From Saprospiraceae bacterium (lineage in GTDB: Bacteria; Bacteroidota; Bacteroidia; Chitinophagales; Saprospiraceae): a stretch of DNA of 64,000 bases. Where the stretch lies: contig JAHDBI010000001.1 in NCBI GenBank assembly GCA_020630475.1, positions 182,973-246,972 on the forward strand, written 5' to 3'. A program made the translations under genes and the position numbers. Below are positions 21,627-59,430 of the stretch, piece after piece; positions within the stretch are counted from its first letter, which is position 1, and the number at the start of each line of letters is the position of its first letter. Below the pieces are notes generated by a model that worked only from the letters and a program-made list of their open reading frames with translations, had not been told where the DNA came from and searched no databases.

Positions 21627-22456
21627 GAGAATTGATTACAGGATTCAATTTTGGCGTAAAGCTTATCACAAGCCTTTTGAATTGTAGGATTTAATTTAAT
21701 TTCCTGACCGCGCCCAACCGCTTTGGCATTTATTATTTGAGTGGATTCTGGATGAGTAAATGTTATACCAATAAAATTATATAAATGTTGAAAAGATTTC
21801 AAGGGGCTATTTACCAGATCTTCATATTTGCACAAAAGAACCTTAGATTGATCTTGTAAGTTTTGATCGAAAAATAATTTATTTCTTACCCACCAAAAAA
21901 GAGCTGCTGCATCGTAGGAACCTAAGCTATCAAGTTCAAAGCTATGCACAAAATCAACTATTTCTTCTGAAAGGTTTTCACTTCTCCAATTACTTTTGGC
22001 TCTATTGTAAATTGGTTTTAAGTTAGCCTTTCCGTTATCTATACCAAAATGTTTAATGTTTGAAGCAGCTACATCTCTATAATGGCGATATAACCAAATA
22101 ACCTTAAGTGTTTCAAAATTTTCTAAATAATTTAAAGCGTTTTGAGATTCCACTAGAGGCTTTGCTAGAACTACAGGAAAATTGGAATTCGCAAATGTAT
22201 TTTTTAGAGCTTTATGTGAATTAAGCCTAATTTTAGTTACTCTATCTTCACTGTTTAATGAGCTTTTCATTTCATTATACACTCTAATATTTTTATCCTT
22301 ATTAAAAATATTAGAGGTCATCGAGGTTCCAGATCTTTGACACCCCATAAGAAACACGACGATAGTGTTGTGGTTTTTATTGACGTGACGTAATTGCTTT
22401 AAAAACAAATCAATTTTCATTTTGAGTTTGTTTTTAATTCTCTTAATTATAGTCAT
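21623..22456 (-). CDS. Sulfotransferase (P-loop 'RSGTS' type)
   Basis: 277 aa. 5'-PSB 'FLMGCQRSGTSMT'. 3'-PB-like 'WLYRHYRDVAAS'. Confidence 0.75.
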   Translation of the reverse strand: MTIIKRIKNKLKMKIDLFLKQLRHVNKNHNTIVVFLMGCQRSGTSMTSNIFNKDKNIRVYNEMKSSLNSEDRVTKIRLNSHKALKNTFANSNFPVVLAKPLVESQNALNYLENFETLKVIWLYRHYRDVAASNIKHFGIDNGKANLKPIYNRAKSNWRSENLSEEIVDFVHSFELDSLGSYDAAALFWWVRNKLFFDQNLQDQSKVLLCKYEDLVNSPLKSFQHLYNFIGITFTHPESTQIINAKAVGRGQEIKLNPTIQKACDKLYAKIESCNQFS

Positions 22457-27363: not shown

Positions 27364-28414
27364 TTTTAAGTCTTTGTTCCCAACTTTCTACAATTTCTTC
27401 AAATACCGTTTGAAGAGATTTTGTTATATCCCATTGAGGGTAATGTGCCTTCATTTTAGAAAGATCAGATATGTAACAAATATGATCACCTTCTCTATTT
27501 TTATCGGAATAAGTATAGTTCATAGGTTTACCAGTAATGTTTGATACGCGATCAAAAGCCTCTAAGATAGAAGTAGAGTTATCACGACCACCACCAATAT
27601 TATAGACCTCACCACAACGAGGAGAATCGAAAAAGGCTTCAATAAATTTGGCTACATCTAAGGAATGAATGTTATCTCTAACCTGTTTTCCTTTATACCC
27701 AAAAATAGTATACTCACCACCAACGATATTGACCTTTATTAAATAACTCAAAAAACCATGCAACTCAACACCTGAATGGTTAGGTCCTGTCAAACACCCA
27801 CCTCTTAATGCACAAGTAGGCATATTAAAATATCTACCATATTCCTGTACAGAAACATCAGCGGCTACTTTAGAGGCACCAAATAAAGAATGCTTGGATT
27901 GATCAATGGTGAACGTTTCTTTAATCCCATTAAACATTTCTTGATCACCATATTCCCATCTTGTTTCCTTTTCTATGAGATTTAAATTATTTGGTGCATC
28001 ACCATAGACCTTATTTGTACTCATATGTGCAAAAGGACTTTCTGGGCAGTACAATCTACATGCCTCTAAAAGGTTTAAAGTACCTACGGCATTTACATCA
28101 AAATCATCAAATGGTCTAGAAGCAGCTAAATCATGACTAGGTTGTGCAGCTGTATGAGCAATGTGTGATGGCTTGAGCTCTTTAATTAGATCCAATACAG
28201 CTTGTCTATCACGAATGTCCAATTCAACATGTTCAAAACTAGGACAATCTTTAATCAGTTGAGATTGATTCCATCTGGTATCTCCTTTAGGACCAAAAAA
28301 GTCAGCACGCATATTATTGTCAATACCATAAACCTTCCAACCTAAAGCATCAAAATACCGGACAACTTCCGAGCCGATGAGACCAGAAGATCCCGTTACT
28401 AATAATTTATTCAT
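27353..28414 (-). CDS. NAD-dependent epimerase/dehydratase (extended SDR, CDP-paratose-2-epimerase-like)
   Basis: 353 aa. '[14 protein letters not shown]', 'MSTNKVYGD'. 'LFGASK' sits where YxxxK is expected. Confidence 0.8.
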
Positions 28415-29400
28415 TTACCTGTTATTATATTTTTTAATCCGCGAATGTAATTTTTAGATACACTTCTAAAAATGTTTATTTTTTTATATTTCCACAAGTC
28501 ATGAGTTTTAGGCTTCGATGCCTTAAATGTAAAACTCCATGCCTTTGATAGATCTGTTTTAAAAGCTTTGAAATTTTTCTTACTAAAATGTAAAGCTCCT
28601 CTTAAATAATGGTTTTTACATAGAATCCAAGCGACAATAGTTTTCTTTTCATTTGTAAGTAGTTCACTTTCATATAAGTTTGAAAGAAAAGATATCCTAC
28701 TATCATTAAAGGAAAATGGCCGCATTAAACTTCTTTTGGTTATTCCTTTATCATGTCGACGATATACACCTGTTTTGTCACTCATATGATGGCCTTTACA
28801 GTTAAGCATAATTAAGCATTCTAAAGGCCAATCTCCCATGACACATTCCATTGTAGACTTAACATAATAATCTAAGTCAATAAGCGATCTCCTGAAGACC
28901 ATAGTTAAAGTGGTTCCACCTTTTTTAATAATCGAATCAGAAAAGCTAAAGCTATAATCTTGTTTACTACTGTAAACATCTTGATCGCTTATACCAATGA
29001 CATTTGTATCTGTATAGCACAAACCGTATTCTTCATTAGCATCAAGAAAATCAATTTGTTTTTGAAGTTTATATGGATCTATCCAATAATCGTCCCCGGG
29101 TAACAATGCAATGTATTCCCCTGTTGCATGTCTAATTAAATTCACAAAATTCCATCTTCCTGTTGGCCTATCTTTTATGTAAATGACATTTGATCTGTCA
29201 TTTTGAAAAACTCGTACATGCTTATACTTTTCTGCAAACTGAAGGCAGACGTCTTTAGTGCCATCCTTAGATCCATCTTCACCAACTAAATGTTCAATTT
29301 CAAAATTTGTCTTTTGATCAGCCACGCTTTGAAGCGCTTGCTCTATATATTTTTCGTGATTATAGGTAGTTGTTACAATACTTACCTTAACACTATTCAT
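28411..29400 (-). CDS. Glycosyltransferase family 2
   Basis: 329 aa. '[24 protein letters not shown]', 'GEDGSKDGT', 'LPGDDYW'. Confidence 0.9.
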
Positions 29401-30208
29401 TGAGAAAAATATTTAAAGGAGAATTTTCTAAATCTTTTTGAATCGCCAAAATAATTTCATTCGGCATTAAATCCTTCCATTTGCTTACAACCGCAGAAGA
29501 TTTAAAAACAGAATGTTCGTCTGCATCATGTCTATTTTGAGATTGATAGATAAAGTCAGAAGTTTGTTGGCTTAGTTCAATGTTGAGAAAGTCAAATAAG
29601 TTCTTTACTTCATCAAAGGTGTTTTTGACTAAGTTTTCGTATCGAATCACTTTTATCTTTTCTGGATTAGATTTCTCTAATTCTAAATATCGTGTTGTCA
29701 GTTTTTTCCAGTCAGAAAAACCCCAAAATTCGTGACGGTCAACTTTTCTACATTGTCCTGTATACCATTCCTTCAAAGGGTCACATTGTGTAGGGAATTC
29801 TTTTTTAGAATTTATCCAAGAAGAGATACAACCTAAAGGATTCCTAACAATATATACCAGTTTAGTTTTGTCTAATACAATGAACTTAGATAAGACATCG
29901 TGATGCCTGACATCCTTAATTAAAAGATGTTTGGGGTTTGTTTTTTTATTTTGCCAAGTTGGAAATTCATTACGATTACGTCGATCTGTTTGCAACAAAA
30001 AAGAATCTTCAGAGACATAAACGTTGTTTAAAAAATTGATCCAGTCTTCTTCGCTTGAATGTTCATCTACTTCTTGCTTAAACGCATAAGAAAACAAAGG
30101 GCTCATTTTGAAATTGACTTCTGGACTACTATCTATTAGTTGACTTAACCAGCTCGTTCCAGAACGAGGCATCCCACAAATCCAAATTGAATTAAAGATG
30201 TAGTTCAA
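29393..30208 (-). CDS. Sulfotransferase (P-loop 'RSGTS' type)
   Basis: 271 aa. 5'-PSB 'CGMPRSGTSWLSQL'. 3'-PB-like 'YIVRNPLGCISS'. Confidence 0.8.
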   Translation of the reverse strand: MNYIFNSIWICGMPRSGTSWLSQLIDSSPEVNFKMSPLFSYAFKQEVDEHSSEEDWINFLNNVYVSEDSFLLQTDRRNRNEFPTWQNKKTNPKHLLIKDVRHHDVLSKFIVLDKTKLVYIVRNPLGCISSWINSKKEFPTQCDPLKEWYTGQCRKVDRHEFWGFSDWKKLTTRYLELEKSNPEKIKVIRYENLVKNTFDEVKNLFDFLNIELSQQTSDFIYQSQNRHDADEHSVFKSSAVVSKWKDLMPNEIILAIQKDLENSPLNIFLNE

Positions 30209-30253: not shown

Positions 30254-31162
30254 TCAATTTAAAAGCCTTAAGGTATTTGTGACAAAAGTCGGAACCTGAT
30301 ATTTTGATTTTAGTTTGTTGGCAATTTCAGTGATTTCAACAATTGACATTTCACGTTTAAATAAAAGACCAATACATGTTCCACTATGGGTATTTTGAAT
30401 TCCTAAAGCACCAAATTCTTTTTTAAAATTGCTGAGTATATTTTTCCTTGTTTCACTTGGACATCTTGATAAATGGATTTCTGTTGAACGAGTAGCACAT
30501 TCAGCAATTGCAACATCATCATGTGCTTCAAAAGATTTGAGGGTGTCTTGATATAACAGATCATACTGAGCTAACGAAGACGCTGTAAAATCTAAATTAT
30601 GGTTAAAATTTACCGTATCCACCTGCCCACCCAAATCGAGAGCAACTACCCAATACTTAGGTATATACATCAAATCCTTTAGTAATTTACCTTTTCTGTG
30701 ATTATAAATAACACAGGATTTATGCATTAATCCATCATGAGGTTCTATGTCAATGAAAATATTAGAAATTGTGTTGTTACGTAATAAAAACCCAAAAACC
30801 TCTTGCAAAGCCCTAACAGTTGAAAGCATATCAGCGGTACTAGAGCTTAAGCCTTTTCCAATAGGAATATTTCGACTAAACGAAATAGTAAGTTCGAAGC
30901 CCTTAGTAACACCAAGTTTTTCTAACAACTTTTCTGAGACTTGTTTGGATTTATACAAATCACAATTAATGACTAAAGGCCCTTCTCTTTTAATACAAGT
31001 TAAATTGCATATTGACCACATGTCAATAGGTAAAGTTATTAGAAAGTCTTCACCAGACGAAAGGCGTCCTTGTACAATTTCTCCGAAACTGCTATGTGAT
31101 TTTCCATATCCGACAATTATATTGGATTGAAAAGGCATGATGTCAAGAGTATTTCTTAGCAC
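30254..31162 (-). CDS. GHMP-family kinase (PduX/threonine-kinase-like small-molecule kinase)
   Basis: 302 aa. 'SFGEIVQG'. GHMP motif 2 'PIGKGLSSSTADMLST'. The tracked start at 31162 is GTG and shares 1 nt with the upstream stop. ATG at 31138 is an alternative. Confidence 0.7.
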   Translation of the reverse strand: MLRNTLDIMPFQSNIIVGYGKSHSSFGEIVQGRLSSGEDFLITLPIDMWSICNLTCIKREGPLVINCDLYKSKQVSEKLLEKLGVTKGFELTISFSRNIPIGKGLSSSTADMLSTVRALQEVFGFLLRNNTISNIFIDIEPHDGLMHKSCVIYNHRKGKLLKDLMYIPKYWVVALDLGGQVDTVNFNHNLDFTASSLAQYDLLYQDTLKSFEAHDDVAIAECATRSTEIHLSRCPSETRKNILSNFKKEFGALGIQNTHSGTCIGLLFKREMSIVEITEIANKLKSKYQVPTFVTNTLRLLN

Positions 31163-32067
31163 TATATTAATTTATTAAGTTTTTCCATGTTTTTCCATCC
31201 AGAGTCTCCCATTATCGCAACAATGTCTCCGGATAAATTATTTCTTTTACAAGCCTGCATAGTTGCTTCAAGAACACCACCACCTTGAAATCCTACAAAT
31301 ATACCTTGGCTTGCCAATTGTTTAGTTCTCTCTTCGGCCTGATGTTGAGAAATTTTTACGGTATCATCGTATAAAGATTCATCCATCATTTTTTTAATAA
31401 AAGGAGTTATGTAGTCTCCATCGTCAAAACCACCTGTTCCTGGTATTTTAGTTCCAGGAGCAGCTTGAGAGGTTAATATTTTTATATTAGGATTTTGCTC
31501 TTTTAGATATGTTGAAACCCCACACATACTTCCTCCTGATCCCATAGAACCTGCTACTGCAGTAACGTTAGGAAACTCTTTTAGAATTTCAGGACCCAAG
31601 GTTTCATATGATGCTTTTGGGTTAGCCCAATTGTGTAACTGATCCAAGAAACAATATTTTTCAGCACCTACGGGAGTTTGTACTATTTCTGCACATTTTC
31701 TATTTCCTTCTACAGTAATGCTACCTTTAATAGTGCACTTACCCCCAAAATATTCAATGAATTGCTTTTTGTCTTGGGTTAATTTTGTGTTACAAATTAC
31801 CTCAACGTCATAACCAAGCATTTTACCATAAAAGGCTATAGCACAAGCCATATTTCCACTACTGGCATCAAGTAGAGTTTTATCTTTGGTTAATCGTCCA
31901 GAATCTATGGCATCTTGGATGTTATATAAACATGCACGATCTTTAATGCTTCCAGTAGGATTCATTCCCTCTAGCTTAATGTATATTTTGCAGTCTGGTA
32001 ACTCTTGTTGATGAAACAAAACTATAGGCGTATTGCCCACCATGTCACGAATAGAATTATAGATCAT
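31162..32067 (-). CDS. Fold-type II PLP enzyme of the cysteine synthase (CysK/CysM/SbnA) family
   Basis: 301 aa. PLP lysine 'GMNPTGSIKDRA'. 'ASSGNMACAIA'. Gly loop 'GSMGSGGSMCG'. Confidence 0.85.
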   Translation of the reverse strand: MIYNSIRDMVGNTPIVLFHQQELPDCKIYIKLEGMNPTGSIKDRACLYNIQDAIDSGRLTKDKTLLDASSGNMACAIAFYGKMLGYDVEVICNTKLTQDKKQFIEYFGGKCTIKGSITVEGNRKCAEIVQTPVGAEKYCFLDQLHNWANPKASYETLGPEILKEFPNVTAVAGSMGSGGSMCGVSTYLKEQNPNIKILTSQAAPGTKIPGTGGFDDGDYITPFIKKMMDESLYDDTVKISQHQAEERTKQLASQGIFVGFQGGGVLEATMQACKRNNLSGDIVAIMGDSGWKNMEKLNKLI

Positions 32068-32959
32068 TTCTTATTAATTTATATATGTTTGTTTTATTAA
32101 AATTTCCGCTCTTTTCTAAATAATCAAACAAGCCTTTTAAAGACTCTCGTTTTTCGTTTAAAGTGTCTTCGGGTATTTGCTTTATTTTTTTTATAATTCC
32201 AAGGAATTGATGAAAAATAGAAATTCCTTTAACGTCCATTTCTTTTAATCCCAATTCTTTCCAAATGGCGGGTAAGCTTTCTTTTCGATTAAGATCAAAC
32301 CAAAAATTGGTACTATAGTTTACCTCCTTAAATTTGGAGTCTTCAAGAACTTTGATAAAATCTTTGAACTCATTAAAGACTAAAGCCCTCAATAGAAGTG
32401 CCTCAAAATTATGCTCTGTAATTATAGCGATGCCTTCCTTTTTTAATTTAGAAATCACTTCTTTTTGGGCCAACCGTATTACATCTCCTAAATAATAGAA
32501 AACATTAATCGCTAAAAAAGCATCAATGCTACTCTCTTTTAAAGGAATCTTTTCTAAACTCGAATTAATGACCAAAACTTTATCCTCATTCCTTGTTTTT
32601 TTAAGGTGGTTACTGAGTGAAGTCAAAGGAACGTGATGTGCATCTATAGCGATAATTTTTTTAAAACCATTTCGCAACAAGTAATCGGTAAATCGCCCAT
32701 CACCACATCCAATATCTGCTATTACTGAGTTGTCGGGATCTAAATCACAGAGATAATCCTTTAATATGTTTTCATAATAAGGTGTTTCCCAATTTGATTG
32801 ATGAGAAGAAACAGAACTTAATTCTCGTAAATTGGCACCTTTTTCTTTTGTGTTATGAAAATCTACTCCAGGAGAAGAATGAATCTCACCTAGAATTATA
32901 TTGTGCTCATCGGTTTTCACCGAATGTTTTAAAATCTCATTTTTCCAGTTCTGCAACAT
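32057..32959 (-). CDS. Class I SAM-dependent methyltransferase
   Basis: 300 aa. Motif I 'IADIGCGDGRFTDYLL'. Confidence 0.8.
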   Translation of the reverse strand: MLQNWKNEILKHSVKTDEHNIILGEIHSSPGVDFHNTKEKGANLRELSSVSSHQSNWETPYYENILKDYLCDLDPDNSVIADIGCGDGRFTDYLLRNGFKKIIAIDAHHVPLTSLSNHLKKTRNEDKVLVINSSLEKIPLKESSIDAFLAINVFYYLGDVIRLAQKEVISKLKKEGIAIITEHNFEALLLRALVFNEFKDFIKVLEDSKFKEVNYSTNFWFDLNRKESLPAIWKELGLKEMDVKGISIFHQFLGIIKKIKQIPEDTLNEKRESLKGLFDYLEKSGNFNKTNIYKLIRNDL

Positions 32960-32968
32960 TAAATTTAT

Positions 32969-34171
32969 TTAATCAAATTTTATGGATACATGGTCCCTCA
33001 AGTTAGACGTCAAAAGAGTATGCATGTCATCAAAATCCTGATATTTCAGTAATAATAAACCCAATCGGCAACCGGAATTAATAAACCGATTAATTTTGTC
33101 GCCCTTTGAGATATTTACTTTTTTGTAAATAATTCTTTTTTCTATTTCATCTGAAAATGTGACCTTATTAAAGATTCCACTTTTATCAGAATGAAGAACG
33201 TAATGAGAATAACAGCCTTGAGGATTTGACTCATTGGTGTTCACAATTCCATCTCCCATACATTGTGTAAGCGAAGCGCTGATTAAATCAAATCCGGTGT
33301 GATATTGAATGATATCATTCAACATATTTCCCCCATTTCTTGCACCGATATCAATAACCATTGGATCACCGTTGGGGGTTTCAATAACATCTATATTAAA
33401 AGCACCAGTTACTATATTCAATGATTTAAAAAGCTTAGACAACTGTTTAGTTAAATTGTCAAAAAATGTTTTGTCCTTTGAAGCAGGTAGTGAAATAGAA
33501 CGAGGTACTAAACCATTTACAGATTCATTAAAATGTACATCGCCAAAACATTGAAAAACAATTTCACCGTTATCTACTAAGACATCACCAGACATGAGGA
33601 ATCCGACTCTTACTATAAATTCTTCTAGTATAATTTTATTTGCTCTTGAGAATGATAAACTATCTTCTAATAAATGAGAAACGTCGCTATCTGAATCCAC
33701 TTTGTGAATGCCTTTACTACCTGAGGAATCAACTGGTTTAACAATACAAGCATTGTTTACTTCAGACAAGAAAGCTTGAGCATCATGTGCATTCGTTACT
33801 TCAGCAAATTTTGGATATGGAATACCTAATGATTTTTGAGCTCCTCTAAAAGTAATTTTGTCAGAAAGTATTTGTATAGATTTAAAAGGATTACATTCAA
33901 GATTAAGTGCTTCTCCAACGTAGCTTGCTGTTAAAGCACTTGGGTCAGAAGCGTAGGAGGAAACACCATTAATCTTTAGTTTTTTTGATAACTCAAGAAT
34001 TCCATCTAAGTCTGTTGTACTTACGTCATGGTATTCGTCAGAATATTGATGACCTGGATTTCCAGGTAAATAGTCCGCAGTAATAACGTAATATCCTAAT
34101 TCTTTTGCGCGTTTGATAGCCGATATTTGAATATCAGAACCACCAAGCATTAATAATTTCTTTTTAGTCAT
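32969..34171 (-). CDS. ATP-grasp domain ligase
   Basis: 400 aa. Pre-ATP-grasp 'KKLLMLGGSDIQISAIKRAKELGYYVITAD'. 'CIVKPVDSSGSKGI'. Confidence 0.75.
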   Translation of the reverse strand: MTKKKLLMLGGSDIQISAIKRAKELGYYVITADYLPGNPGHQYSDEYHDVSTTDLDGILELSKKLKINGVSSYASDPSALTASYVGEALNLECNPFKSIQILSDKITFRGAQKSLGIPYPKFAEVTNAHDAQAFLSEVNNACIVKPVDSSGSKGIHKVDSDSDVSHLLEDSLSFSRANKIILEEFIVRVGFLMSGDVLVDNGEIVFQCFGDVHFNESVNGLVPRSISLPASKDKTFFDNLTKQLSKLFKSLNIVTGAFNIDVIETPNGDPMVIDIGARNGGNMLNDIIQYHTGFDLISASLTQCMGDGIVNTNESNPQGCYSHYVLHSDKSGIFNKVTFSDEIEKRIIYKKVNISKGDKINRFINSGCRLGLLLLKYQDFDDMHTLLTSNLRDHVSIKFD

Positions 34172-34195
34172 GAATTTAAAGTATTGGTAAAACCA

Positions 34196-35275
34196 CTACA
34201 GATTTTTCTTAATTAAATCACAAATCATTTCGATATTACTTTCCTCTAAAGTGTGATAAAGAGGTAGACAAATGATACTTTCTGCAACCTTGTCACTAAT
34301 AGGTGTTTTTTGTTTTACAACGTATTCTAAAGAAGATAGGGAGGGATAAAAGTATCTTCTCGGAAATACTTCAGCCTTATTTAAAGCTTCTATAATTGAT
34401 AGGGTAATATTTTCGTTTTCAAAGACAATAGGGAAATAGGAAAAATTATATGATGTATGATTTAGAATTTTTTGAAATGAAAGCTGATGCACGTTTTTAA
34501 GAGATTCTAAATATTGATTGTATTGTTTTTTTCGGTTTAATAAAATCTCATCAATATAATTTAAGTTGAGTAAACCCATACTTGCGTGAAATTCAGAATT
34601 TTTACCATTGATTCCTACTCCACTAAATTGTTCTGGTCCAGAATGTCCAAAATTCCTCATAGACATTAAAACATTATTAAGCTGAGTGTCTGTAGAAATC
34701 ATACCACCTCCCTCAATAGTATGGAATAATTTAGTCGCATGAAAACTTGTTGTACTTATATCACCATATTCGAAGACAGAACGATTGTGGTGAGTCACAG
34801 CAAAAGCATGGGCCGCATCGTATATTACTTTTAAGCCATGTTTATGAGCTATTTTTTCAATGGCCAAAACATTGCAAGGATTTCCAAAAACATGCGTTGC
34901 TAATATTGCTGAAGTTTCATCGGTTATCGCATCTTCTATTTTGTTTGGATCAATATTAAAACTATCCTTGTCTATATCAACAAATATTGGATCAAATCCT
35001 TCCCAAACAATACTACTTGTTGTTGCCACATATGAAAAAGGAGTGGTTATTATTTTTCGACCTTTTAGGTTTAAAGCCTTAATGGCTATTTGTATTGCGA
35101 TGGTGCCATTGCCAGTAAATAAGAAATTTTCAAGATTCAAATAATTTTTCAAATTAGCTTCTAAGGCTTTTACATTAGGACCGTTGTTTGTTAACCAGTT
35201 TCTTTCCCATATTCCATCTAAATATTGTTTATATGCTTCTTTTGGTGGCAAAAAGGGTTTTGTTACCGGGATCAT
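34196..35275 (-). CDS. DegT/WecE-type PLP aminotransferase (nucleotide 4-keto-6-deoxy-sugar transaminase-like)
   Basis: 359 aa. 'IPVTKPFLPP'. PLP lysine 'TSFHATKLFHTIEGGG'. Confidence 0.9.
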   Translation of the reverse strand: MIPVTKPFLPPKEAYKQYLDGIWERNWLTNNGPNVKALEANLKNYLNLENFLFTGNGTIAIQIAIKALNLKGRKIITTPFSYVATTSSIVWEGFDPIFVDIDKDSFNIDPNKIEDAITDETSAILATHVFGNPCNVLAIEKIAHKHGLKVIYDAAHAFAVTHHNRSVFEYGDISTTSFHATKLFHTIEGGGMISTDTQLNNVLMSMRNFGHSGPEQFSGVGINGKNSEFHASMGLLNLNYIDEILLNRKKQYNQYLESLKNVHQLSFQKILNHTSYNFSYFPIVFENENITLSIIEALNKAEVFPRRYFYPSLSSLEYVVKQKTPISDKVAESIICLPLYHTLEESNIEMICDLIKKNL

Positions 35276-36723
35276 AACTTAGACTTTAAATAATTTAAAC
35301 CCCGTTTTGAATTTTTAAATAAAACGGAGTTACTAAAAAAATGATAAGCTGAGCTTAGAGAAATAAAAACTATAGTTATCCAAATGATATTCAGATAATG
35401 ACTTTCAATTTGTAGGATTCCACGCAAAAACTGAATAAAAACAATGATACAAGCTAACATTCCTAGTTCTGGTAGGATTTGTAAAAATTGTTTCTTGATC
35501 TTCACGCCAATTGTTTTTTGAACAGCCCACATATTAATGGTAAAACCAATGAGCGCTAAACATAAAACGGAGATTAGAAACCAAAAAACACCGTAATAAT
35601 AGCCTACTACAAAACTTGGTAATTGGATTATCTTTTTAACCACAGATATCTGTAGAAATAATTTTGAATGCCCTAAGCCTTTAATGATATTTATCATGAT
35701 AGAACTTAACGGGTAAAATATTCCGCTAAGGATAAGTATTTGAAATAGTGGAACAGATGGCAACCATTTTTCAGTTATTAAGATCACATAAAAATCTTCA
35801 GCAATTAAGAATAGCATGCCACAAAACAAGGTGATTATTCCAGCAACAAGTTTAAGTAGCATCAAGTACGATTTCTTAACCCTTTCCTTATCGTCTTGCA
35901 TTGCGCTAAACGTCGGAAATAAAACCTTTGATAAACTTCCCGTTGACAGGGTAATAGCTGTATTTTTAAAGGACTTAGCTCGTGTGTAAAAGCCCAAACT
36001 TTCCATAGCGAAGAGTTTTCCAATAAAAAATATATCTAGTCTGGAGAAGATACCATCTACTAGAGCAGACAGCATAATGTTAGATCCATAACTAAATAGA
36101 TCCCTTATAGAATTAAAGGAGAAAACCATCTTTGGTTTCCAATTTGACTGAAGCCAAATAAAAATGGAAAGAAAAAGAGAATTACTTAATATTTGAAATA
36201 CTAAACTCCATAATCCGTAACCTGCATAAGCCATATAAATACCAATACAGCCGGAAAGCAAGGCTGAAATTGTATAAGAAATGGTTAGCTTTTTAAATTG
36301 CATTTTCTTACGAAACAAGCTAATCTGCACGGAGTTAAAACCTTTTATAATAAAAATAACACTCATTACTTTTCCAACCATGAATAAGCGCTCATCATCG
36401 AAGAAAATCGCTAATTGATTCGAAAAGAAGAATAAAATTAGCGTAAGGAGTAAGCTGATACCGAGATTAATATAAAAGACCGATGACAGCTTAGTACTGT
36501 TTAAATCTTTGCTTTGTATTATAGCACTGGAAAATCCAAAATCGACAAATATTTGGGCAAAACTACTAAGAGCAAGAATTATTCCTATTACACCGAAATC
36601 AACAGGATCTAAAATTCTTGCTAAAATTATAGATACAGTTAAGGTTACTATTTTTAAAATGTATGTACCAGCGGCATCCCATACCCAAGCAGAGAAAATT
36701 GTCTTTCTAGTTAAATCGCTCAA
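35272..36723 (-). CDS. wzx: Wzx-type repeat-unit flippase (MOP superfamily)
   Basis: 483 aa, about 12 or more hydrophobic helices. Typical N-terminus 'WVWDAAGTYILKIVTLTVSIILARIL'. Confidence 0.85.
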   Translation of the reverse strand: MSDLTRKTIFSAWVWDAAGTYILKIVTLTVSIILARILDPVDFGVIGIILALSSFAQIFVDFGFSSAIIQSKDLNSTKLSSVFYINLGISLLLTLILFFFSNQLAIFFDDERLFMVGKVMSVIFIIKGFNSVQISLFRKKMQFKKLTISYTISALLSGCIGIYMAYAGYGLWSLVFQILSNSLFLSIFIWLQSNWKPKMVFSFNSIRDLFSYGSNIMLSALVDGIFSRLDIFFIGKLFAMESLGFYTRAKSFKNTAITLSTGSLSKVLFPTFSAMQDDKERVKKSYLMLLKLVAGIITLFCGMLFLIAEDFYVILITEKWLPSVPLFQILILSGIFYPLSSIMINIIKGLGHSKLFLQISVVKKIIQLPSFVVGYYYGVFWFLISVLCLALIGFTINMWAVQKTIGVKIKKQFLQILPELGMLACIIVFIQFLRGILQIESHYLNIIWITIVFISLSSAYHFFSNSVLFKNSKRGLNYLKSKL

Positions 36724-38131: not shown

Positions 38132-38974
38132 TTATTTTTCACAGATTAGCAAGTAACAAAGTTCTTTTTTGTCCGTGGTCCGGAATGAAGGTGAAACAGA
38201 ATCCTTTATCTGATTATATTCTTTGATATAATCAGCTAACATTTTACGCTCTGCCTTGCTCCCTGTTTTTGTAACTTTCCAATACGGATTGTACGCAATA
38301 CATTCTACGCTTTTAAAACCTAAATCAGTACAAATGTTTTTGTAATAAGTTTTATCATATTCTGTTCGCAAAATTGAATTGGAATTAATACTTTTCTTAC
38401 CGATGATACGCTTAACAAAATGCTTTAGTATTGAAACCGGATTATATTTAATTCTTTGATGAATCGATTTTTTAAAAGGAAGTTGAGGTACAATAGGCAT
38501 AAAAGCTAAACCACCTGGAGTCAATAATCTGAGCGTCTCCTTCAAGGTTAAAGAAGGATTTTCAAAGTGTTCTAGTAAACCAATATTATAAATACAATCA
38601 AAACTAGAAGGAGCAATGTTTGTGTTTTCTACGTCCGCAAGTATCATTTTTGGTTGTGATAAGCCGTAGTGATTAAAACTATACTTGGCTACATTAAATC
38701 CCTCTTTTGCTAAATCCACCATAGTAATGTCCGTATATCCATTTTTAGATAGATACATACTGGTGGTACCTCTACCAGAACCTAATTCGCAAAAAGTAGA
38801 ATAATTTTTTCCTTCTATTAATTTTAATAAGTCATTCGCATAACCTCTCTGCCAGAATTGAAATATGGTTGTTGGAGTTTCTTCTGTATACATTTGGTTT
38901 AGTAAATCATCTTTCGATTGTTCATTCCAAATGTTGTTCCAGCCTTCGTAACTTCCTTTGTTTTTACTTTCCAT
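38132..38974 (-). CDS. Class I SAM-dependent methyltransferase
   Basis: 280 aa. Motif I 'FCELGSGRGTTSMYLSKNG'. Confidence 0.8.
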   Translation of the reverse strand: MESKNKGSYEGWNNIWNEQSKDDLLNQMYTEETPTTIFQFWQRGYANDLLKLIEGKNYSTFCELGSGRGTTSMYLSKNGYTDITMVDLAKEGFNVAKYSFNHYGLSQPKMILADVENTNIAPSSFDCIYNIGLLEHFENPSLTLKETLRLLTPGGLAFMPIVPQLPFKKSIHQRIKYNPVSILKHFVKRIIGKKSINSNSILRTEYDKTYYKNICTDLGFKSVECIAYNPYWKVTKTGSKAERKMLADYIKEYNQIKDSVSPSFRTTDKKELCYLLICEK

Positions 38975-39662
38975 TATTTTTCATTAACAAGAATTCAGCA
39001 AATTCTAGATCTAAAGGATCATTTATATCAATTGATCGTTCACGTGGCATTTTGTATCCAGAACATTTGTCCCCAATAATTCTTCCAGACTGTATTACAT
39101 GAATAGTAGAAACATAAACAGAACAATTTCTAACATATAGTTCAGGAAGTTCATGCGCGGCCATTCTTCCTTTTTCTTCCTCAATAAAAGGAAGTAAGAT
39201 ATCCTCGTGTGACAAGGTTTTCATTTTTACAGGGTGGATGGCATGGTCAAGTTTACAGACACTTACGGAAGAATCACTTTCGGTTTGAATAAGCAAGTCA
39301 ATCGTGTTATCAATATCTGCTCCTGTGGTTAAAGGAGAACTAGGTTGTATTATAACCACGAGGTCATAAGATTCTTCAAAGTTGTTAAGTGCATGTTCAA
39401 CATAAGCAATGGCCAGCGCCTTATCCCCCGAAATTTCATCAGGCCTTCTCAAAGATTCAACCTCGTTATAAGTTGACGCTATTGACAGAATCATGTCATC
39501 GTCTGAAGAAACAACAATGTGCGTTAGTAGTTTAGATTGCTTTGCCGCTTCAATGGAATAACGAACGAGTTCTTTTCCATTGAGTTTTGTTTTATTCTTA
39601 TGAGGTATTCTTTTGGATCCTCCTCGAGCTGGTATTATGCCAAGTATTTTCAAGAGAGACAA
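38964..39662 (-). CDS. neuA: Acylneuraminate (nonulosonate) cytidylyltransferase, short form
   Basis: 232 aa. 'GIIPARGGSKRIPHKN'. Confidence 0.9.
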   Translation of the reverse strand: MSLLKILGIIPARGGSKRIPHKNKTKLNGKELVRYSIEAAKQSKLLTHIVVSSDDDMILSIASTYNEVESLRRPDEISGDKALAIAYVEHALNNFEESYDLVVIIQPSSPLTTGADIDNTIDLLIQTESDSSVSVCKLDHAIHPVKMKTLSHEDILLPFIEEEKGRMAAHELPELYVRNCSVYVSTIHVIQSGRIIGDKCSGYKMPRERSIDINDPLDLEFAEFLLMKNNGK

Positions 39663-39667
39663 TAAAT

Positions 39668-40417
39668 TTACTTAAGTGTCAAAATTGAATAGTTGTTCAT
39701 ATCGCTAGCTTTCATTCTTTCTGTTTTTAAAGTCCAGTTAGAACTTGGCTTCATGTGATATTTATCTGAAATTTTTTTCTTTAAATGTGCGTATGTTGAT
39801 TTTCGATTGTCAATTAGAATGACTTTAGGATAATTAAAGTTGAGCATCTCATCCAAATCGTCCGTAAATACTTCTGCCTTAAAATCACCATCTACTAGGG
39901 TAGAAGGACCGTCAATAATTAATATGTCCAGTTGATCTTTGTAAATATCGGTATATCTAAAAACTTCAATAGGTTTTTCTTGAGACATCATTCTTTTGTT
40001 AAAGGTCATGTTTAACCTTGGACTTAAACCACCAATGCGTGAAATGATTCCTTTAGTATTTTCCATCCATTTATCTGATTCTTCAAATACAGTTACTTTT
40101 GTTTCATTGTCTTTCGACCAATGATTTAGTACGGAGGTGGTCGACCCAGAACCCAATTCTAATACAGAACTAGGTTGGTGTTTTTGGAGAATAGAATAGA
40201 TGCTTATAAGTTTATAAAGTTGAAAGTTTCGATTATATCTAAAACCTCCTCCTTTTACATATTCTTCTATTGCAAGATTAAAATAGCTCAAGGTATCTTT
40301 GTTAACCGCTTCAAAATCACGCACAATCATTTTTATCTGATTCATATTATGCTTACGCACGAAATATTCTTTGATTAAACTAGGATTTTTTAAATATCGA
40401 ATGACTGATTTAATCAT
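39668..40417 (-). CDS. Uncharacterised protein, possibly a class I methyltransferase fold
   Basis: 249 aa. 'VLELGSGSTTSVL' (motif-I-like) and 'DILIIDGP'. Weak assignment. Confidence 0.35.
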   Translation of the reverse strand: MIKSVIRYLKNPSLIKEYFVRKHNMNQIKMIVRDFEAVNKDTLSYFNLAIEEYVKGGGFRYNRNFQLYKLISIYSILQKHQPSSVLELGSGSTTSVLNHWSKDNETKVTVFEESDKWMENTKGIISRIGGLSPRLNMTFNKRMMSQEKPIEVFRYTDIYKDQLDILIIDGPSTLVDGDFKAEVFTDDLDEMLNFNYPKVILIDNRKSTYAHLKKKISDKYHMKPSSNWTLKTERMKASDMNNYSILTLK

Positions 40418-41355
40418 AACAAATTGTATAGTTTGTTTAAAATAAAAGTTTCTGTTTTCTCAAAAGACTCAAAAGTACAGCCACCTATGTGCGGGCTAAT
40501 CACTAAGTTTCTATGTTGTTGAGCGTAATGTACAAGTGGATGATCTGCTATTTCAGGTTCACCATATAAAACATCTACTGCTGCTCCGGCAATATTTCCA
40601 CTTTTTAAACAACGCAACATGCTAGCTTCATCGATCACCCCACCGCGACTTGTGTTGATAAGCCATTTTTTCGAATTGAAGTTTTTAAAAAAGGAATCAC
40701 CGTATAGATGATGTGTTGTTTTATTGTATGGAATGTGAATACTAATGATATCGGATTTTTCCACAAGTGTTTGAACGTCCGAATAAACGTGAATGTGCTC
40801 TGGACTGTCTTTAGCTTGTGTGTCAAAATACCCTACTGTAGATCCAAAGGCATGAAAATAATCTGCTACAATACGACCTAGTCTACCATAACCAATTATA
40901 CCTACAGTTTTTTTATATATTTCGTTTCCTCTAAATAAATCTCTTTGCCAACTACCTTTTAATACGTTTTGAATTGCAGGGGCAACATTTCTCATTACAG
41001 ATAAGGTGAGCAGCAAGGTGTGTTCTGCCGTTGCTCGTACTTCTTTTAAAAATTCGGTTTCACCACGAAGACAGACAATTTTAATTCCATACTTTTCACA
41101 AAGCTCTTCATCAATATGATCAATACCAGTAACTGGGGTTGCAATGAACTTACATGTAGTCTTTTCAGAAACGACTGATTCATTAATTTGGAATCCTAAT
41201 CGGAACCAGAAAACATCATAAGTTTCAAAAATATCTTTTAATTCATCTTGTTCACATTCCCCTACAGTCAAATTGAATTTCGAATTAAGTTCATTCAAGA
41301 CTTCTTGACTAAAATCTTCGGTCTCTGTTAAGAACAAATTGAGTTTTTTCTCCAA
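40414..41355 (-). CDS. D-isomer-specific 2-hydroxyacid dehydrogenase family protein
   Basis: 313 aa. 'VGIIGYGRLGRIVADYF', 'NTSRGGVIDE', 'AAVDVLYGEP', 'SPHIGG'. Confidence 0.85.
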   Translation of the reverse strand: MEKKLNLFLTETEDFSQEVLNELNSKFNLTVGECEQDELKDIFETYDVFWFRLGFQINESVVSEKTTCKFIATPVTGIDHIDEELCEKYGIKIVCLRGETEFLKEVRATAEHTLLLTLSVMRNVAPAIQNVLKGSWQRDLFRGNEIYKKTVGIIGYGRLGRIVADYFHAFGSTVGYFDTQAKDSPEHIHVYSDVQTLVEKSDIISIHIPYNKTTHHLYGDSFFKNFNSKKWLINTSRGGVIDEASMLRCLKSGNIAGAAVDVLYGEPEIADHPLVHYAQQHRNLVISPHIGGCTFESFEKTETFILNKLYNLL

Positions 41356-41356
41356 T

Positions 41357-42526
41357 CTAGTAACTTAGTTTTTTGTCAAAAGTAAGTGACACTTTTTCAA
41401 GTAGTTGTGCAATATGTTTTCCACTGTCACCTGATCCGTAAATAGGATCAGAATCATATCTACCGTGAAGAAGTTGTTTTTCTATTGCCCCTTTAATTTG
41501 AGACTCATCGTAATCAACGTCAATAGTGTTTCTCCCTCTTTCTCTTCCGCTTTGTCTTACACCAATATTAACAACAGGAATGCCTAAGTAAGAACACTCC
41601 CTAATTCCTGCACTTGAATTTCCAATTAGACATTTGGAGTTAAGTAAAAGTTTTAAAAAATCTTGCCCCTCCATGTTTTTGAAAAAATGAATAAAGTCAA
41701 TGTTATTTTTTTCTCTAAATGCCCTGATACCTTTAGAGGTTCCATCTGAACCTGCATCAACATTGGGCCAGAACCAAAATGTCGGCATTTTTAGCTGATG
41801 AATAGCATTAAGTGTTTTAGAGATGTGAATTCTTGAATTCTTATATTCTGTTGTAACTGGATGTTGTAAAACAACTAAGTAACCATTTTCCCAACCAGTG
41901 ATATTTCCAACGCCTCCATATTTTTCAAAAGGGTTAAAATCAAGTTTTGGATTTTGATTTATATGTTCTGCTAAATCAATTGAAGGACAACCGGTATTAA
42001 AAACCGTTTCCGGAAATTCACCCATTTTGATAACCCGTTCTTTTGCTTTGGCGGAAGCCACAAAATGAACATCTGAAAGTTTAGTTATGGCATGACGAAC
42101 CTTTTCGTCTATGTTTCCAGTCACTTCTCCTCCTTGAATATGTACAAGTGGAATGTTCATATAACTAGCAGCTATTGCAGTTGACATAGTCTCAAACCTA
42201 TCGGCTATTGTCACTACAGCGTCTGGATTTAGGCGTTCGAAAACAGAAGATAATTCAAGTATACCCAAGCCAGTTGTTTTCGCTTGAGCCGTTAAATCTT
42301 CTCCTTCAATAACATTTATGACTCTAGCCGCAATAGGAAAACCATCTTCTTCCATATATTTAACTGCTTTTCCATATCGGTCTAAAAGAGCGGAAGCCGC
42401 AACAACTAGTTGTAATTCTAGATGTTCGTTTTCATGAATTGCACGTAAAGCAGTTTTGATTCTGCTGTAACTTGGTCTTGCTGTAACGACAACACAGATT
42501 TTTCTTTTTTTATTCAAAGTCTTCAT
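41357..42526 (-). CDS. neuC: UDP-N-acetylglucosamine 2-epimerase, hydrolysing (NeuC/LegG type)
   Basis: 389 aa. 'ICVVVTARPSYSRIK', 'HIQGGEVTGNIDEKVRHAITKLS'. Confidence 0.9.
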   Translation of the reverse strand: MKTLNKKRKICVVVTARPSYSRIKTALRAIHENEHLELQLVVAASALLDRYGKAVKYMEEDGFPIAARVINVIEGEDLTAQAKTTGLGILELSSVFERLNPDAVVTIADRFETMSTAIAASYMNIPLVHIQGGEVTGNIDEKVRHAITKLSDVHFVASAKAKERVIKMGEFPETVFNTGCPSIDLAEHINQNPKLDFNPFEKYGGVGNITGWENGYLVVLQHPVTTEYKNSRIHISKTLNAIHQLKMPTFWFWPNVDAGSDGTSKGIRAFREKNNIDFIHFFKNMEGQDFLKLLLNSKCLIGNSSAGIRECSYLGIPVVNIGVRQSGRERGRNTIDVDYDESQIKGAIEKQLLHGRYDSDPIYGSGDSGKHIAQLLEKVSLTFDKKLSY

Positions 42527-43523
42527 CTTTTAGAAAATCATATTTCTTCTTAGCATGCTTTAATGTTTTACCAATTACGGATTTAAAACTTGAAGCATCA
42601 ATGCCAAACCCTTTTGGCTTTTTACTTTCTAAGTCATCGAAAGTTATAATATGATTAGCAGGTAGATCTTTGGAAACCGCGAGGGATTTTTCAAAGATAT
42701 TTTTTAACTCAGTATATTCTTTGTTATCCGACTTATCTATCGGGTTGTTTTTTGATTTTTCTATCGACCTAATTCCTTCTACAAGTTGGGCTATTTCGTC
42801 AATAGTCAAAGAGGATGTAGCATCAGGACCAAACATACGTTTATCGAACGTTGCATGGAATTCTAAAATATCAATCCCAATTCCGGCAGCTGCAATTCCC
42901 GCAAATATAGTTCCAGTATGTTCTGATAGGCCTATTGAACATTTAGGATATCTAGATTTTAATTCTGATATAACATTAAGGCCTAATTTTTCGTAGGGAG
43001 TAGGGTAGCTTGTGGTGCACTGAAGAATGCTTAAATCATTGCCAAACTGTTTTATAAAATTTACGGCTTCGTCTAATTCAGAAAATGAACTCATACCAGA
43101 AGACAGAATAATTGGTTTTCCAGTCTTTGCGATTTTTTCCAGCATTAAATAGTTAGTCACTTCACCTGAACCAATCTTATACCTTTTTACATTTAGTTCT
43201 TCAAGTAAATCCACAGCTGTTTGCGAAAAAGGACTAGAAAGAAATTCTAAACCAACTTGATCACAATGTTCTTTTATTCCAAACCAAGCTTCTTTGGAAA
43301 AGGACATTCTTTTCCAATAATCAAATCGAGTTTTGTCTTCATAAGAGAATTTAACTCGAAAGGGCTCATGAATACTACTTTCGGCTTCTGCTATGTGAGT
43401 TTGGAATTTTATTGCATCTACACCAGTCGCAGCTAATGCATCAATAAATGAATGCAAAATCCCCAAACTACCTTCGTGTGCTTGGCCAATTTCCGCAATA
43501 ATAAAAACGTTCGAATTAGACAT
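42510..43523 (-). CDS. neuB: N-acetylneuraminate (nonulosonate) synthase
   Basis: 337 aa. 'FIIAEIGQAHEGS'. C-terminal SAF-like 'LAVSKDLPANHIITFDDL'. Confidence 0.9.
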   Translation of the reverse strand: MSNSNVFIIAEIGQAHEGSLGILHSFIDALAATGVDAIKFQTHIAEAESSIHEPFRVKFSYEDKTRFDYWKRMSFSKEAWFGIKEHCDQVGLEFLSSPFSQTAVDLLEELNVKRYKIGSGEVTNYLMLEKIAKTGKPIILSSGMSSFSELDEAVNFIKQFGNDLSILQCTTSYPTPYEKLGLNVISELKSRYPKCSIGLSEHTGTIFAGIAAAGIGIDILEFHATFDKRMFGPDATSSLTIDEIAQLVEGIRSIEKSKNNPIDKSDNKEYTELKNIFEKSLAVSKDLPANHIITFDDLESKKPKGFGIDASSFKSVIGKTLKHAKKKYDFLKDEDFE

Positions 43524-44484: not shown

Positions 44485-45786
44485 TTAGAGCCTTCCGTCT
44501 ACATCCTTTTTAGGAAGTATACTTTTTACATCGTATAAAATACCATCCTCATTTAAATAAGACCGCATATCCATATTTAGAAAATCTTTATGTGCTACAG
44601 TCAAAACTATCGCATCATAATCATTGTCTAAGGATTCAATATCATTTGTACAAGCAATGTTAAATTCTCTCTTTACTTCATTTTCGTTTGCCCAAGGATC
44701 GAAAAGCGTTAAATCAACACCATAAGATATAAGCTCATTATAGACATCAATTGCTCTTGTGTTTCTTATGTCTGGACAGTTTTCTTTAAAGGTTATACCT
44801 AGTGCCAAAATTTTAGCTCCATTGATTTTAATTTCTCTTTTAATCATTAGTTTGATTACTTCACTAGCAACGAAACTACCCATACCATCATTTAATCGTC
44901 TACCAGCCAAAATGATTTCAGGATGATAGCCTACTTCTTGAGCTTTTTGGGCTAAGTAGTATGGATCTACACCGATGCAATGTCCACCAACTAAACCTGG
45001 ACGAAATGGAAGGAAATTCCACTTTGTCCCAGCGGCTTCTAGAACCTCTAATGTATCAATATCCATTTTGTTGAATATTTTTGAAAGTTCATTAACAAAG
45101 GCTATGTTGATATCTCTTTGACTATTTTCAATAACCTTAGCAGCCTCAGCTACTTTTAAAGAAGATGCTTTGTATGTGCCAGCAGTAATGACGCTTTTAT
45201 ATATCTGATCGATTATTTCTGCAGATTCTTCCGTAGAACCGGAAGTTACTTTTAGAATTTTAGTCACTGTATGGTTTTTGTCGCCAGGATTTATTCTTTC
45301 AGGACTATAACCAACATAGAAATCAGCATTGAACGTTAATCCAGAGTGTTTTTCTAAAACTGGAATGCATTCATCTTCTGTTGCTCCAGGATAAACAGTT
45401 GATTCATAAACAACGAAATCACCTTTTTTTAAGACACTACCCACAGTTTCACTTGCTTTTTTTAATGGGGTAAGAACGGGTCTATTGTTTTTATCCGTAG
45501 GTGTAGGTACTGTAATAATGTAGAAGTTACACGCATTAAGTGATTCGGGATTTGTAGAAATTAATAATCCATTCTTATCTAACTCATCATGCGTGTTTTC
45601 TTGTTTTTTTAACACTGACTTTAGGTGTTCATCTTCAACCTCTAAAGTGGAATCTTGTCCAGAAATTAATTCTTTAACACGACGTTCATTTATATCAAAG
45701 CCAACTGTAGGATATTTTTTACCAAACTCTACGGCCAATGGTAATCCAACATAACCTAATCCTATTATTCCAATTTTATAATTCAT
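44485..45786 (-). CDS. UDP-N-acetylhexosamine 6-dehydrogenase (TviB/WbpO/WbpA/CapL type)
   Basis: 433 aa. '[17 protein letters not shown]'. Catalytic Cys '[13 protein letters not shown]'. Confidence 0.9.
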
Positions 45787-47917: not shown

Positions 47918-47992
47918 ATATATACGCTATTTGAAAAACGGTTAAAGGATTTTCGCGAAAGCGAAATTATCAATAGTCATAAAAAGTAAGGC

Positions 47993-48898: not shown

Positions 48899-48904
48899 AA
48901 ATTT

Positions 48905-59420: not shown

Positions 59421-59430
59421 TTTAAAAAAA

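Follow-up and report, generated by a model that had tools for sequence, protein, structure and literature searches.

A conserved five-gene cassette in a Saprospiraceae capsule locus that may decorate a sugar with a methylated non-proteinogenic amino acid

Within a 64,000-nucleotide stretch of a Saprospiraceae genome (contig JAHDBI010000001.1; the whole stretch is called the window below), five genes at 30254-35275 form a compact cassette encoding a DegT-family sugar aminotransferase, an ATP-grasp ligase, a methyltransferase, a CysM-like pyridoxal 5'-phosphate (PLP) enzyme and a GHMP kinase. Homology and conserved synteny lead us to propose that this cassette decorates a capsule sugar with a methylated non-proteinogenic amino acid, a scheme to which we give a probability of about 0.55. 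The grouping itself is not chance adjacency, since genomes of several phyla, independent of one another, show the same order.

Results

The cassette and its conservation

The cassette is filled by exactly five co-oriented open reading frames (ORFs) on the minus strand, nearly abutting, with intergenic gaps of at most 45 nucleotides or with overlapping ends; the start of the DegT gene overlaps the wzx gene (35272-36723) by 4 nucleotides. In the direction of transcription these are a DegT/DesI-like sugar aminotransferase (34196-35275, 359 amino acids; Pfam DegT_DnrJ_EryC1, 3.9e-83), an ATP-grasp ligase whose architecture appears to resemble that of L-amino acid ligases (32969-34171, 400 amino acids; several ATP-grasp Pfam families), a class I S-adenosylmethionine-dependent methyltransferase (32057-32959, 300 amino acids; Methyltransf_11, 1.1e-12, and Methyltransf_25), a CysM-like fold-type II PLP enzyme, called PALP below after its Pfam family (31162-32067, 301 amino acids; PALP, 2.3e-48), and a PduX/DabA-type GHMP kinase (30254-31162, 302 amino acids when read from a GTG start; GHMP_kinases_N). 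A scan for promoters and terminators gave nothing above shuffled expectation, so the case for a single operon is made by gene packing. A preliminary description of this DNA had placed five co-oriented genes directly downstream of wzx and named a fold or family for each; the ORF listing agrees with the first statement and Pfam with all five assignments.

That description had also proposed looking for co-occurrence of the five genes in other genomes. An alignment of the kinase was scanned against one genome per species, yielding 63 loci in which ORFs were called, compared with the window proteins and clustered by neighbourhood. Ten of these are Bacteroidota loci (L004, L007-L014 and L017; L015 and L004 are one contig) that keep the order DegT, ATP-grasp, [methyltransferase], PALP, kinase, [methyltransferase], GT2, where the brackets mark alternative places and GT2 is a family 2 glycosyltransferase, encoded in the window at 28411-29400 (minus strand; Pfam Glycos_transf_2). 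Three further loci were reached through PALP homologues (L076, L077 and L078, one of them an O-antigen locus of the ATP-binding cassette (ABC) transporter type), and the order thus recurs in 13 Bacteroidota glycan loci, at 42-74% identity. In the ten scan loci, identity to the window proteins is 57-74% for PALP, 57-67% for the kinase, 42-61% for the ATP-grasp protein and 48-63% for DegT; ATP-grasp orthologues in L075 and L076 are 52-53% identical.

ATP-grasp is present in all ten scan loci, DegT in nine (the tenth is cut by a contig end) and GT2 in nine. The DegT orthologues lie upstream of ATP-grasp, directly or with one or two intervening genes, and the GT2 orthologues (33-38% identity) lie downstream of the cassette. 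The methyltransferase family occurs in eight of the ten, either ahead of PALP or behind the kinase; L008/L009 and the alphaproteobacterial loci described below have another methyltransferase in this position. Wzx holds the same position in L004, L007, L014 and L078.

The GHMP kinase

The preliminary description had called the kinase PduX-like on the strength of two motifs, FGEIVQG and GKGLSSSTAD, and both are in the translation, at residues 26-32 and 102-111. The GHMP N-terminal domain (PF00288, 6.3e-11) and the P-loop motif GxGLxSSxA are both present. The ORF begins with GTG, and the public gene call (P0001) begins at M9, position 31138, giving 294 amino acids; the latter is likely the true start.

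Homologues at 45-69% identity form a well-conserved family, labelled 'L-threonine kinase' or PduX-like by the Joint Genome Institute (JGI). At 29-34% identity lie kinases from two contexts whose chemistry is known. In the vitamin B12 context (L057, L066) they adjoin a CobD-type aminotransferase and CbiB or CobQ, which is the PduX situation; in the context of 2,3-diaminobutyrate (Dab) synthesis they adjoin a PALP and a fusion of ATP-grasp with Lyase_1 (L055, L059) or, in Streptomyces, PALP-ATP-grasp fusions (L040, L044). The motifs GE[IL]xQG, KGLSSSTAD, IEPxD and HSG[TS] are common to the cassette kinase and the kinases of both contexts. Residues E28, S106-108, E140/D143 and S260 are invariant in the alignment of the kinase family and are conserved against the L057, L066, L055, L059 and L040 kinases. 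Matches of the kinase in the PDB are weak. By family membership, we assign the cassette kinase to the PduX/DabA (L-threonine kinase, COG4542) type.

The Dab system offers a guide to what such a kinase might do. DabABC of Burkholderia thailandensis makes (2S,3R)-2,3-diaminobutyrate, and PacQST and the friulimicin Dab genes are related (PMC10906522). DabA is a PduX-like L-threonine kinase; DabB, which has the cysteine-synthase fold, swaps the phosphate of O-phosphothreonine or O-phosphoserine for the amine of L-aspartate; and DabC, an argininosuccinate-lyase-like protein with an N-terminal ATP-grasp-like domain, releases 2,3-diaminobutyrate (PMC10906522). Presence of the kinase marks threonine-derived products, while kinase-less operons draw on metabolic O-phosphoserine (PMC10906522). 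Since the cassette has the kinase, its chemistry is, by analogy with the Dab operons, most likely threonine-based, with L-threonine as the most likely kinase substrate.

The PLP enzyme

Escherichia coli CysM is the closest solved relative of the PLP enzyme (2e-39 in a PDB sequence search, 32% identity). The enzyme scores below the NCBIfam cutoffs for cysKM (198.1 bits, cutoff 344.15), CysM (192.5, cutoff 413), cysK (163.4, cutoff 350.95) and SbnA (TIGR03945; 142.7, cutoff 349.95), as well as below that for the cysteate synthase CapA. It is 22% identical to a DabB-like protein of Francisellaceae and 26% to one of Streptomyces. Its family is large, with more than 120 clusters sharing more than 53% identity with the window enzyme.

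This family keeps the PLP lysine (K42 in SIKDR, aligned to K41 of CysM), Q143 and the glycine-rich phosphate loop. Other invariant signatures are peculiar to it: a substrate loop SSGNMAC (69-75) as against the canonical asparagine loop TSGNTG; an acidic/aromatic insertion PGTG.F.DGDY.TPF (209-223; FDDGDY in the window enzyme) where CysM has its R210 loop; Gln261 instead of the first serine in the GVSSGG segment; and a C-terminal motif GD.GWK. Because of these signatures and the scores below cutoff, we regard the enzyme as a predicted dedicated beta-replacement lineage, a distinct CysM-like family and not a housekeeping cysteine synthase. An AlphaFold2 model (mean predicted local distance difference test score, pLDDT, 92.7) matched CysM, CysK, Mycobacterium tuberculosis CysM and SbnA in Foldseek with TM scores of 0.82-0.87 (0.84-0.87 for CysM/CysK).

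We also looked for a donor-recycling enzyme such as the lyase of the Dab system or SbnB. Pfam found no Lyase_1, ASL_C2 or SbnB-like (ornithine-cyclodeaminase-like) enzyme among the 55 window ORFs of at least 150 amino acids, and no Lyase_1, SbnB or flavin adenine dinucleotide (FAD) oxidase adjoins the pair in any locus examined with a window-type PALP, including the nonribosomal peptide synthetase (NRPS) cluster described below. This absence of a cleavage enzyme, even in the NRPS cluster, suggests a simple nucleophile, i.e. ammonia or an amine, or sulfide.

The ATP-grasp ligase, aminotransferase and methyltransferase

In Pfam the ligase matches ATP-grasp_3 above cutoff (30.7 bits) and Dala_Dala_lig_C, and weakly LAL_C2 (18.4 bits, cutoff 29.4); there is also a weak match, below cutoff, to the sugar-transfer-associated ATPgrasp_ST. 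Its PDB matches are led by 4dim (6.6e-21, full length), a structural-genomics 'PurD-like' protein, followed by the L-amino acid ligases 3vot (4.3e-10) and 4wd3 (1.4e-7), and no Cj1438 chain is among the PDB sequence matches at E ≤ 0.01. We considered the ligase as a counterpart of the N-terminal domain of DabC, which is unproven: we do not equate the two, because the identity of the ligase to the PALP-ATP-grasp fusions of Streptomyces and to the ATP-grasp-lyase fusions of Francisellaceae is no more than 22-25%, and 4dim and the L-amino acid ligases are nearer to it.

For the aminotransferase, the best PDB match is DesI (2po3, 8.6e-50) and the best NCBIfam model is likewise DesI (TIGR04427; 252.5 bits, cutoff 650). 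The window encodes RmlA, glucose-1-phosphate thymidylyltransferase (45786-46655, minus strand; TIGR01207, 466.5 bits, cutoff 360.65), and RmlB, deoxythymidine diphosphate (dTDP)-glucose 4,6-dehydratase (54482-55534, minus strand; TIGR01181, 476.2 bits, cutoff 365.1), and dTDP-4-keto-6-deoxyglucose should therefore be available to DegT. Its product is probably a dTDP-4-amino-4,6-dideoxyhexose.

An AlphaFold2 model of the methyltransferase (pLDDT 89.5) found only assorted generic methyltransferases in Foldseek. Modelling was tried for this protein and for the PLP enzyme, in both cases with confident models and generic matches that told us nothing about the methyl acceptor or the nucleophile.

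Changing partners of the PALP-kinase pair

Outside the Bacteroidota glycan loci, the genes of the cassette appear in other company. In four alphaproteobacterial loci (L005, L016, L025, L035) the PALP-kinase pair sits beside NeuB and is followed by a carrier protein of 82-90 amino acids with a GWDSxGW serine motif, an AMP-binding ligase, a methyltransferase and an enzyme of the aminoglycoside-N-acetyltransferase family. In the cultured Chryseobacterium gallinarum (CP050995, about 1.985-2.006 Mb; L072), a PALP 62% identical and a kinase 42% identical to those of the window lie inside an NRPS cluster, together with an EctB-like (diaminobutyrate) transaminase, a thioesterase, an outer-membrane barrel protein and an ABC exporter. 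No ATP-grasp or methyltransferase gene is found in that cluster, so two genes appear to be enough to supply the amino acid. Conversely, some loci lack the kinase: one in a gammaproteobacterium, next to fleQ, has ATP-grasp (53% identity), PALP (60%) and methyltransferase (34%), and a JGI locus (3300072015) has DegT, an ATP-grasp::methyltransferase fusion of 691 amino acids and PALP in direct succession. The fusion would tie both activities to one substrate.

This exchange of partners across contexts suggests a division of labor. PALP, plus the kinase where present, is predicted to supply the amino acid, the pair acting as a portable supply module; the ATP-grasp protein appears to hold the role of carboxyl activation and ligation that elsewhere falls to the AMP-ligase with its carrier protein, or to the NRPS; and the methyltransferase would act on the same substrate stream as the ATP-grasp protein.

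Stachelhaus-type codes were read from two adenylation domains of the C. gallinarum cluster, with a GrsA fragment as reference; they are DALYLGNVI (Leu-like) and DILQLGMIW (Gly-like), and neither identifies the product of the module.

Some relatives depart further from the window arrangement. (i) In Parabeggiatoa, Albibeggiatoa, Thiothrix and other Gammaproteobacteria (L018, L021/L070, L023, L026), kinase homologues (44-52% identity in these loci, 41-52% over the sulfur-oxidizing Gammaproteobacteria as a whole) pair with a DabB-like PALP of 360 amino acids. The set in these sulfur oxidizers also has a carrier protein, an AMP-ligase, a GNAT protein and an FAD oxidoreductase, a candidate for cleavage of an amino-acid adduct, and in Albibeggiatoa it adjoins an NMT1-type ABC transporter; large sulfur bacteria may here have a distinct small-molecule pathway that has yet to be described. 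(ii) In a metagenome-assembled genome of Pyrinomonadaceae (L074, 996-3190), the gene of a window-type PLP enzyme (56% identity) is flanked on one side by an NRPS condensation-domain gene and on the other by a gene for a metalloenzyme like ApgM or a 'proposed homoserine kinase'. The latter scores below both family cutoffs, and its standing as a non-orthologous replacement of the GHMP kinase is only a lead. (iii) Two Chitinophagaceae loci (L045, L047) have a DegT 57-58% identical to that of the cassette, with GT2, AsnB and a distant kinase (34-35%); a window-type PLP enzyme was not detected in either. Perhaps they hold a different variant of the decoration pathway.

A proposed pathway and its alternatives

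We envision the following steps. The GHMP kinase, going by its family, would make the O-phospho ester of a beta-hydroxy amino acid, L-threonine being the likeliest. The CysM-like enzyme would then expel the phosphate and add a simple nucleophile at C-beta, giving a beta-substituted 2-aminobutyrate, as its fold, its conserved catalytic residues and the Dab and SbnA precedents suggest; an amine would lead to a product of the 2,3-diaminobutyrate type, and sulfide to one of the beta-methylcysteine type. Before or after ligation, the methyltransferase would methylate N or S, a step suggested by its constant co-occurrence and by the one ATP-grasp::methyltransferase fusion. RmlA, RmlB and the DesI-like DegT would meanwhile make dTDP-4-amino-4,6-dideoxyhexose. 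The ATP-grasp protein would activate the carboxyl of the amino acid and form an amide with the 4-amino group of the sugar, for which we rely on synteny and on its replacement elsewhere by AMP-ligase and carrier protein or by NRPS. GT2 is the candidate for transfer of the decorated sugar, and Wzx and Wzy would assemble the sulfated polymer.

The preliminary description had already suggested an O-phospho-hydroxy-amino acid followed by beta-replacement; the pairing of this kinase with a CysK-fold enzyme fits, and DabABC follows the same logic (PMC10906522). For the ATP-grasp protein it had offered two targets, and the amino sugar made by DegT has gained by the unvarying adjacency in the Bacteroidota loci, while the uronate alternative, modelled on Cj1438, has found no specific support. 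Its interpretation is upheld in part, and it missed the Dab precedent, the portability of the PLP-kinase pair and the dispensability of the kinase in some loci.

Several observations weigh against our proposal. Identity of the kinase to L-threonine kinases, whether proven or supported by context, is only about 30%, which leaves serine or a different hydroxy acid as possible substrates. Neither DabB (22-26% to DabB-like proteins) nor SbnA is an orthologue of the PLP enzyme, and neither sequence nor model discloses which group leaves or which nucleophile enters. The methyltransferase sequence and its Foldseek matches do not reveal a methyl acceptor, and the DegT score is under the DesI equivalog cutoff. 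Two UDP-sugar dehydrogenases in the window make uronate carboxyls available as alternative substrates of the ATP-grasp protein. Lastly, we know of no glycan structure that carries such a residue.

The last-named dehydrogenases bear on a quite improbable alternative in which the ATP-grasp protein, like Cj1438, couples the carboxyl of a uronic acid, in a nucleotide sugar or in the polymer, to the amine of the kinase/PLP product, and DegT acts in the synthesis of some unrelated sugar. There is precedent for uronate amidoligases of the ATP-grasp type, e.g. Cj1438 of Campylobacter jejuni, and besides the two genes of the UDP-glucose/ManNAc (N-acetylmannosamine) dehydrogenase family the window has a TviC-like epimerase gene; the sub-cutoff ATPgrasp_ST match also points this way. 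However, it is DegT that lies just upstream of ATP-grasp, in nine of ten scan loci and in the three further loci, and no uronate gene travels with the cassette; the closest solved relatives of the ligase are L-amino acid ligases, and its substitutes elsewhere, AMP-ligase with carrier protein or NRPS, activate the carboxyl of a small molecule. Unlikely, though a little less so, is a true Dab pathway, in which the PLP enzyme takes the amine of L-aspartate or L-glutamate and an unlinked lyase or dehydrogenase frees 2,3-diaminobutyrate, or else an opine-like adduct is itself the decoration. The kinase belongs to the same superfamily clade as that of Dab operons, the Dab and SbnA precedents are at hand, and the gammaproteobacterial kinase homologues accompany a DabB-like PLP enzyme and a possibly cleaving FAD oxidoreductase. 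Pacidamycins contain N-methyl-Dab, for which the methyltransferase of the cassette would be a parallel. On the other side, identity of the PLP enzyme is 22-26% to DabB-like proteins as against 32% to CysM, and Lyase_1, SbnB and FAD oxidase are absent from the window and from beside the pair in loci with a window-type PALP.

We give very little credence to two simpler explanations. The PLP enzyme might be an ordinary cysteine synthase serving the genes of the locus for sulfation and for 3'-phosphoadenosine-5'-phosphosulfate (PAPS) supply, with the kinase unrelated; it does resemble CysM, JGI labels its homologues cysteine synthase or CysO-dependent cysteine synthase, and CysN, CysD and CysC are encoded in the window. 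Yet it falls below all the cysK/cysM equivalog cutoffs, has the SSGNMAC loop and the invariant insertion replacing the R210 loop of CysM, and in different phyla its gene stands next to that of the kinase, within glycan or NRPS loci; this synteny speaks for the pair being a dedicated module. Equally far-fetched seems an anomeric sugar kinase feeding a nucleotide-sugar pathway. The GHMP superfamily includes galactokinase and other sugar kinases, and the weak PDB matches leave room for one, but the nearest relatives defined by context are L-threonine kinases of B12 and Dab operons, with family motifs in common, and the kinase gene always follows the PLP gene, the NRPS cluster included, with no nucleotidyltransferase travelling along.

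Returning to the decoration of an amino sugar, we can sharpen the proposal into a more specific one, held tentatively and with the odds somewhat against it: a two-enzyme route from threonine to a beta-substituted aminobutyrate by direct amination or sulfhydration, free of donor recycling, would be plugged into NRPS or glycan pathways, and in the latter the ATP-grasp protein and methyltransferase would yield an N- or S-methylated aminoacyl group on a 4-amino-6-deoxy sugar. To our knowledge, a residue of that type is unreported in any polysaccharide.

Novelty and implications

The logic of a kinase followed by fold-type II beta-replacement is already known, from Dab and SbnA. The preliminary description did not recognize the gene combination from any characterized pathway, and a literature search likewise found no paper on it, only the Dab paper; by that search none of the following is characterized: the PLP lineage, a PLP-kinase pair that has no donor-recycling enzyme beside it, ATP-grasp and methyltransferase as standing partners, and the glycan context. 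If the scheme is true, it adds a new family of beta-replacement enzymes and a short route, driven by ATP, to a non-canonical amino acid, and it would be the first link of Dab-type amino-acid chemistry to the decoration of surface polysaccharides. The cassette would then be a genomic marker, in Bacteroidota and in Alpha- and Gammaproteobacteria, for unusual aminoacylated sugars in capsules, O-antigens and probably the nonulosonate glycans of flagellin, and the pair, with only two genes, could serve engineered cells as a compact module for making non-canonical amino acids. As the same pair occurs in C. gallinarum, the route is directly testable, this cultured species being a tractable source for identifying the amino acid.

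The surrounding capsule locus

The window has 55 ORFs of 150 amino acids or more, every one of them on the minus strand, and Pfam and NCBIfam scans of the full set show that the cassette lies in a capsule or exopolysaccharide locus of the Bacteroidota type, about 56 kb long. Its content includes two Ugd-family dehydrogenases, two AsnB-like amidotransferases, the Wzx flippase directly upstream of the cassette (35272-36723, minus strand; Pfam Polysacc_synt_3, 2.2e-84), a Wzy-like protein, a TviC-like epimerase and an initiating phosphoglycosyl transferase. Heading the locus, as in Bacteroides capsule loci, are a NusG/UpxY-like antiterminator gene (55609-56163) and a gene for a Wza-like exporter of 917 amino acids with several SLBB domains (56733-59486). 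MetH (59431-63009) marks the outside boundary.

Sulfation is well represented. PAPS synthesis genes CysN, CysD and CysC lie at 46658-49483, and three sulfotransferases of two Pfam families are encoded at 29393-30208, 21623-22456 and 18267-19034; with its own PAPS supply and three sulfotransferases, the locus probably makes a heavily sulfated polysaccharide. The first of the three (minus strand; Pfam Sulfotransfer_1) directly neighbours the cassette and was considered as a core member, but its patchy presence rules this out: orthologues are confined to L004, L007 and L014, two further lineages (L009/L077 and L078) have other sulfotransferases, and a search of the eight remaining Bacteroidota glycan loci, including L008, which a contig end cuts short, detected none. 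Adjoining the cassette only in a subset of loci, it is best classed as accessory.

Other gene sets in the locus are also of note. (i) A nonulosonate set at 38132-43523 has NeuB, a NeuC-like epimerase, a 2-hydroxyacid dehydrogenase, an unassigned ORF of 249 amino acids, a CMP-transferase and a methyltransferase. (ii) The segment 1324-7228, with a LegC-family aminotransferase (453 bits, above cutoff), a PglD-like acetyltransferase, a PglF-like dehydratase, a second 2-epimerase and an NTP-transferase, looks like a legionaminic-acid/bacillosamine gene set. (iii) At 8472-12387, inside the biosynthetic locus, are a heparinase II/III-like protein (609 amino acids) and a 698-amino-acid fusion of zinc-ADH-like and GFO_IDH_MocA oxidoreductase domains. 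(iv) A protein of 481 amino acids (20181-21626) matches GINT1_N (3.3e-34), the N-terminal domain of the eukaryotic glucosamine inositolphosphorylceramide transferase 1, which is unusual in a bacterial capsule locus.

Comparison with known systems

Among characterized systems DabABC is closest: a PduX-like GHMP kinase is likewise paired with a beta-replacement enzyme of the cysteine-synthase fold, an ATP-grasp domain is associated with the pair, and the kinase is optional. The cassette differs in having a PLP enzyme of another lineage (22-26% identical to DabB-like proteins, 32% to CysM), in lacking the argininosuccinate-lyase domain, in keeping a methyltransferase as constant partner, and in its place in a Wzx/Wzy capsule locus with DegT and GT2 rather than an NRPS cluster. 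With SbnA/SbnB (and SulG/SulH and CmnB/K), which make L-2,3-diaminopropionate, it would have in common fold-type II PLP beta-replacement on an O-phospho amino acid; the cassette has no SbnB-type dehydrogenase, and the presence of a GHMP kinase points to a backbone from threonine, not serine.

The O-acetylserine/O-phosphoserine sulfhydrylases CysM and CysK are closest to the PLP enzyme in sequence and structure (TM about 0.86 for E. coli CysM), and it keeps their PLP lysine, Q143 and phosphate-binding glycine loop; it is set apart from them by the SSGNMAC loop, the FDDGDY insertion, Gln261, the scores below cutoff and the dedicated context. PduX/BluE of cobalamin synthesis have the same GHMP subfamily motifs as the cassette kinase, which is about 29-31% identical to the kinases adjoining CobD and CbiB, but no cobalamin genes are adjacent to it, and its partner is of fold-type II, unlike the fold-type I decarboxylase CobD. 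Finally, the L-amino acid ligases (BL00235, RizA, DdaF) and Cj1438-type amidoligases have the ATP-grasp fold in common with the ligase of the cassette and, probably, amide formation through an acyl phosphate; where the L-amino acid ligases use an amino acid as acceptor, the one proposed here is a nucleotide-linked amino sugar.

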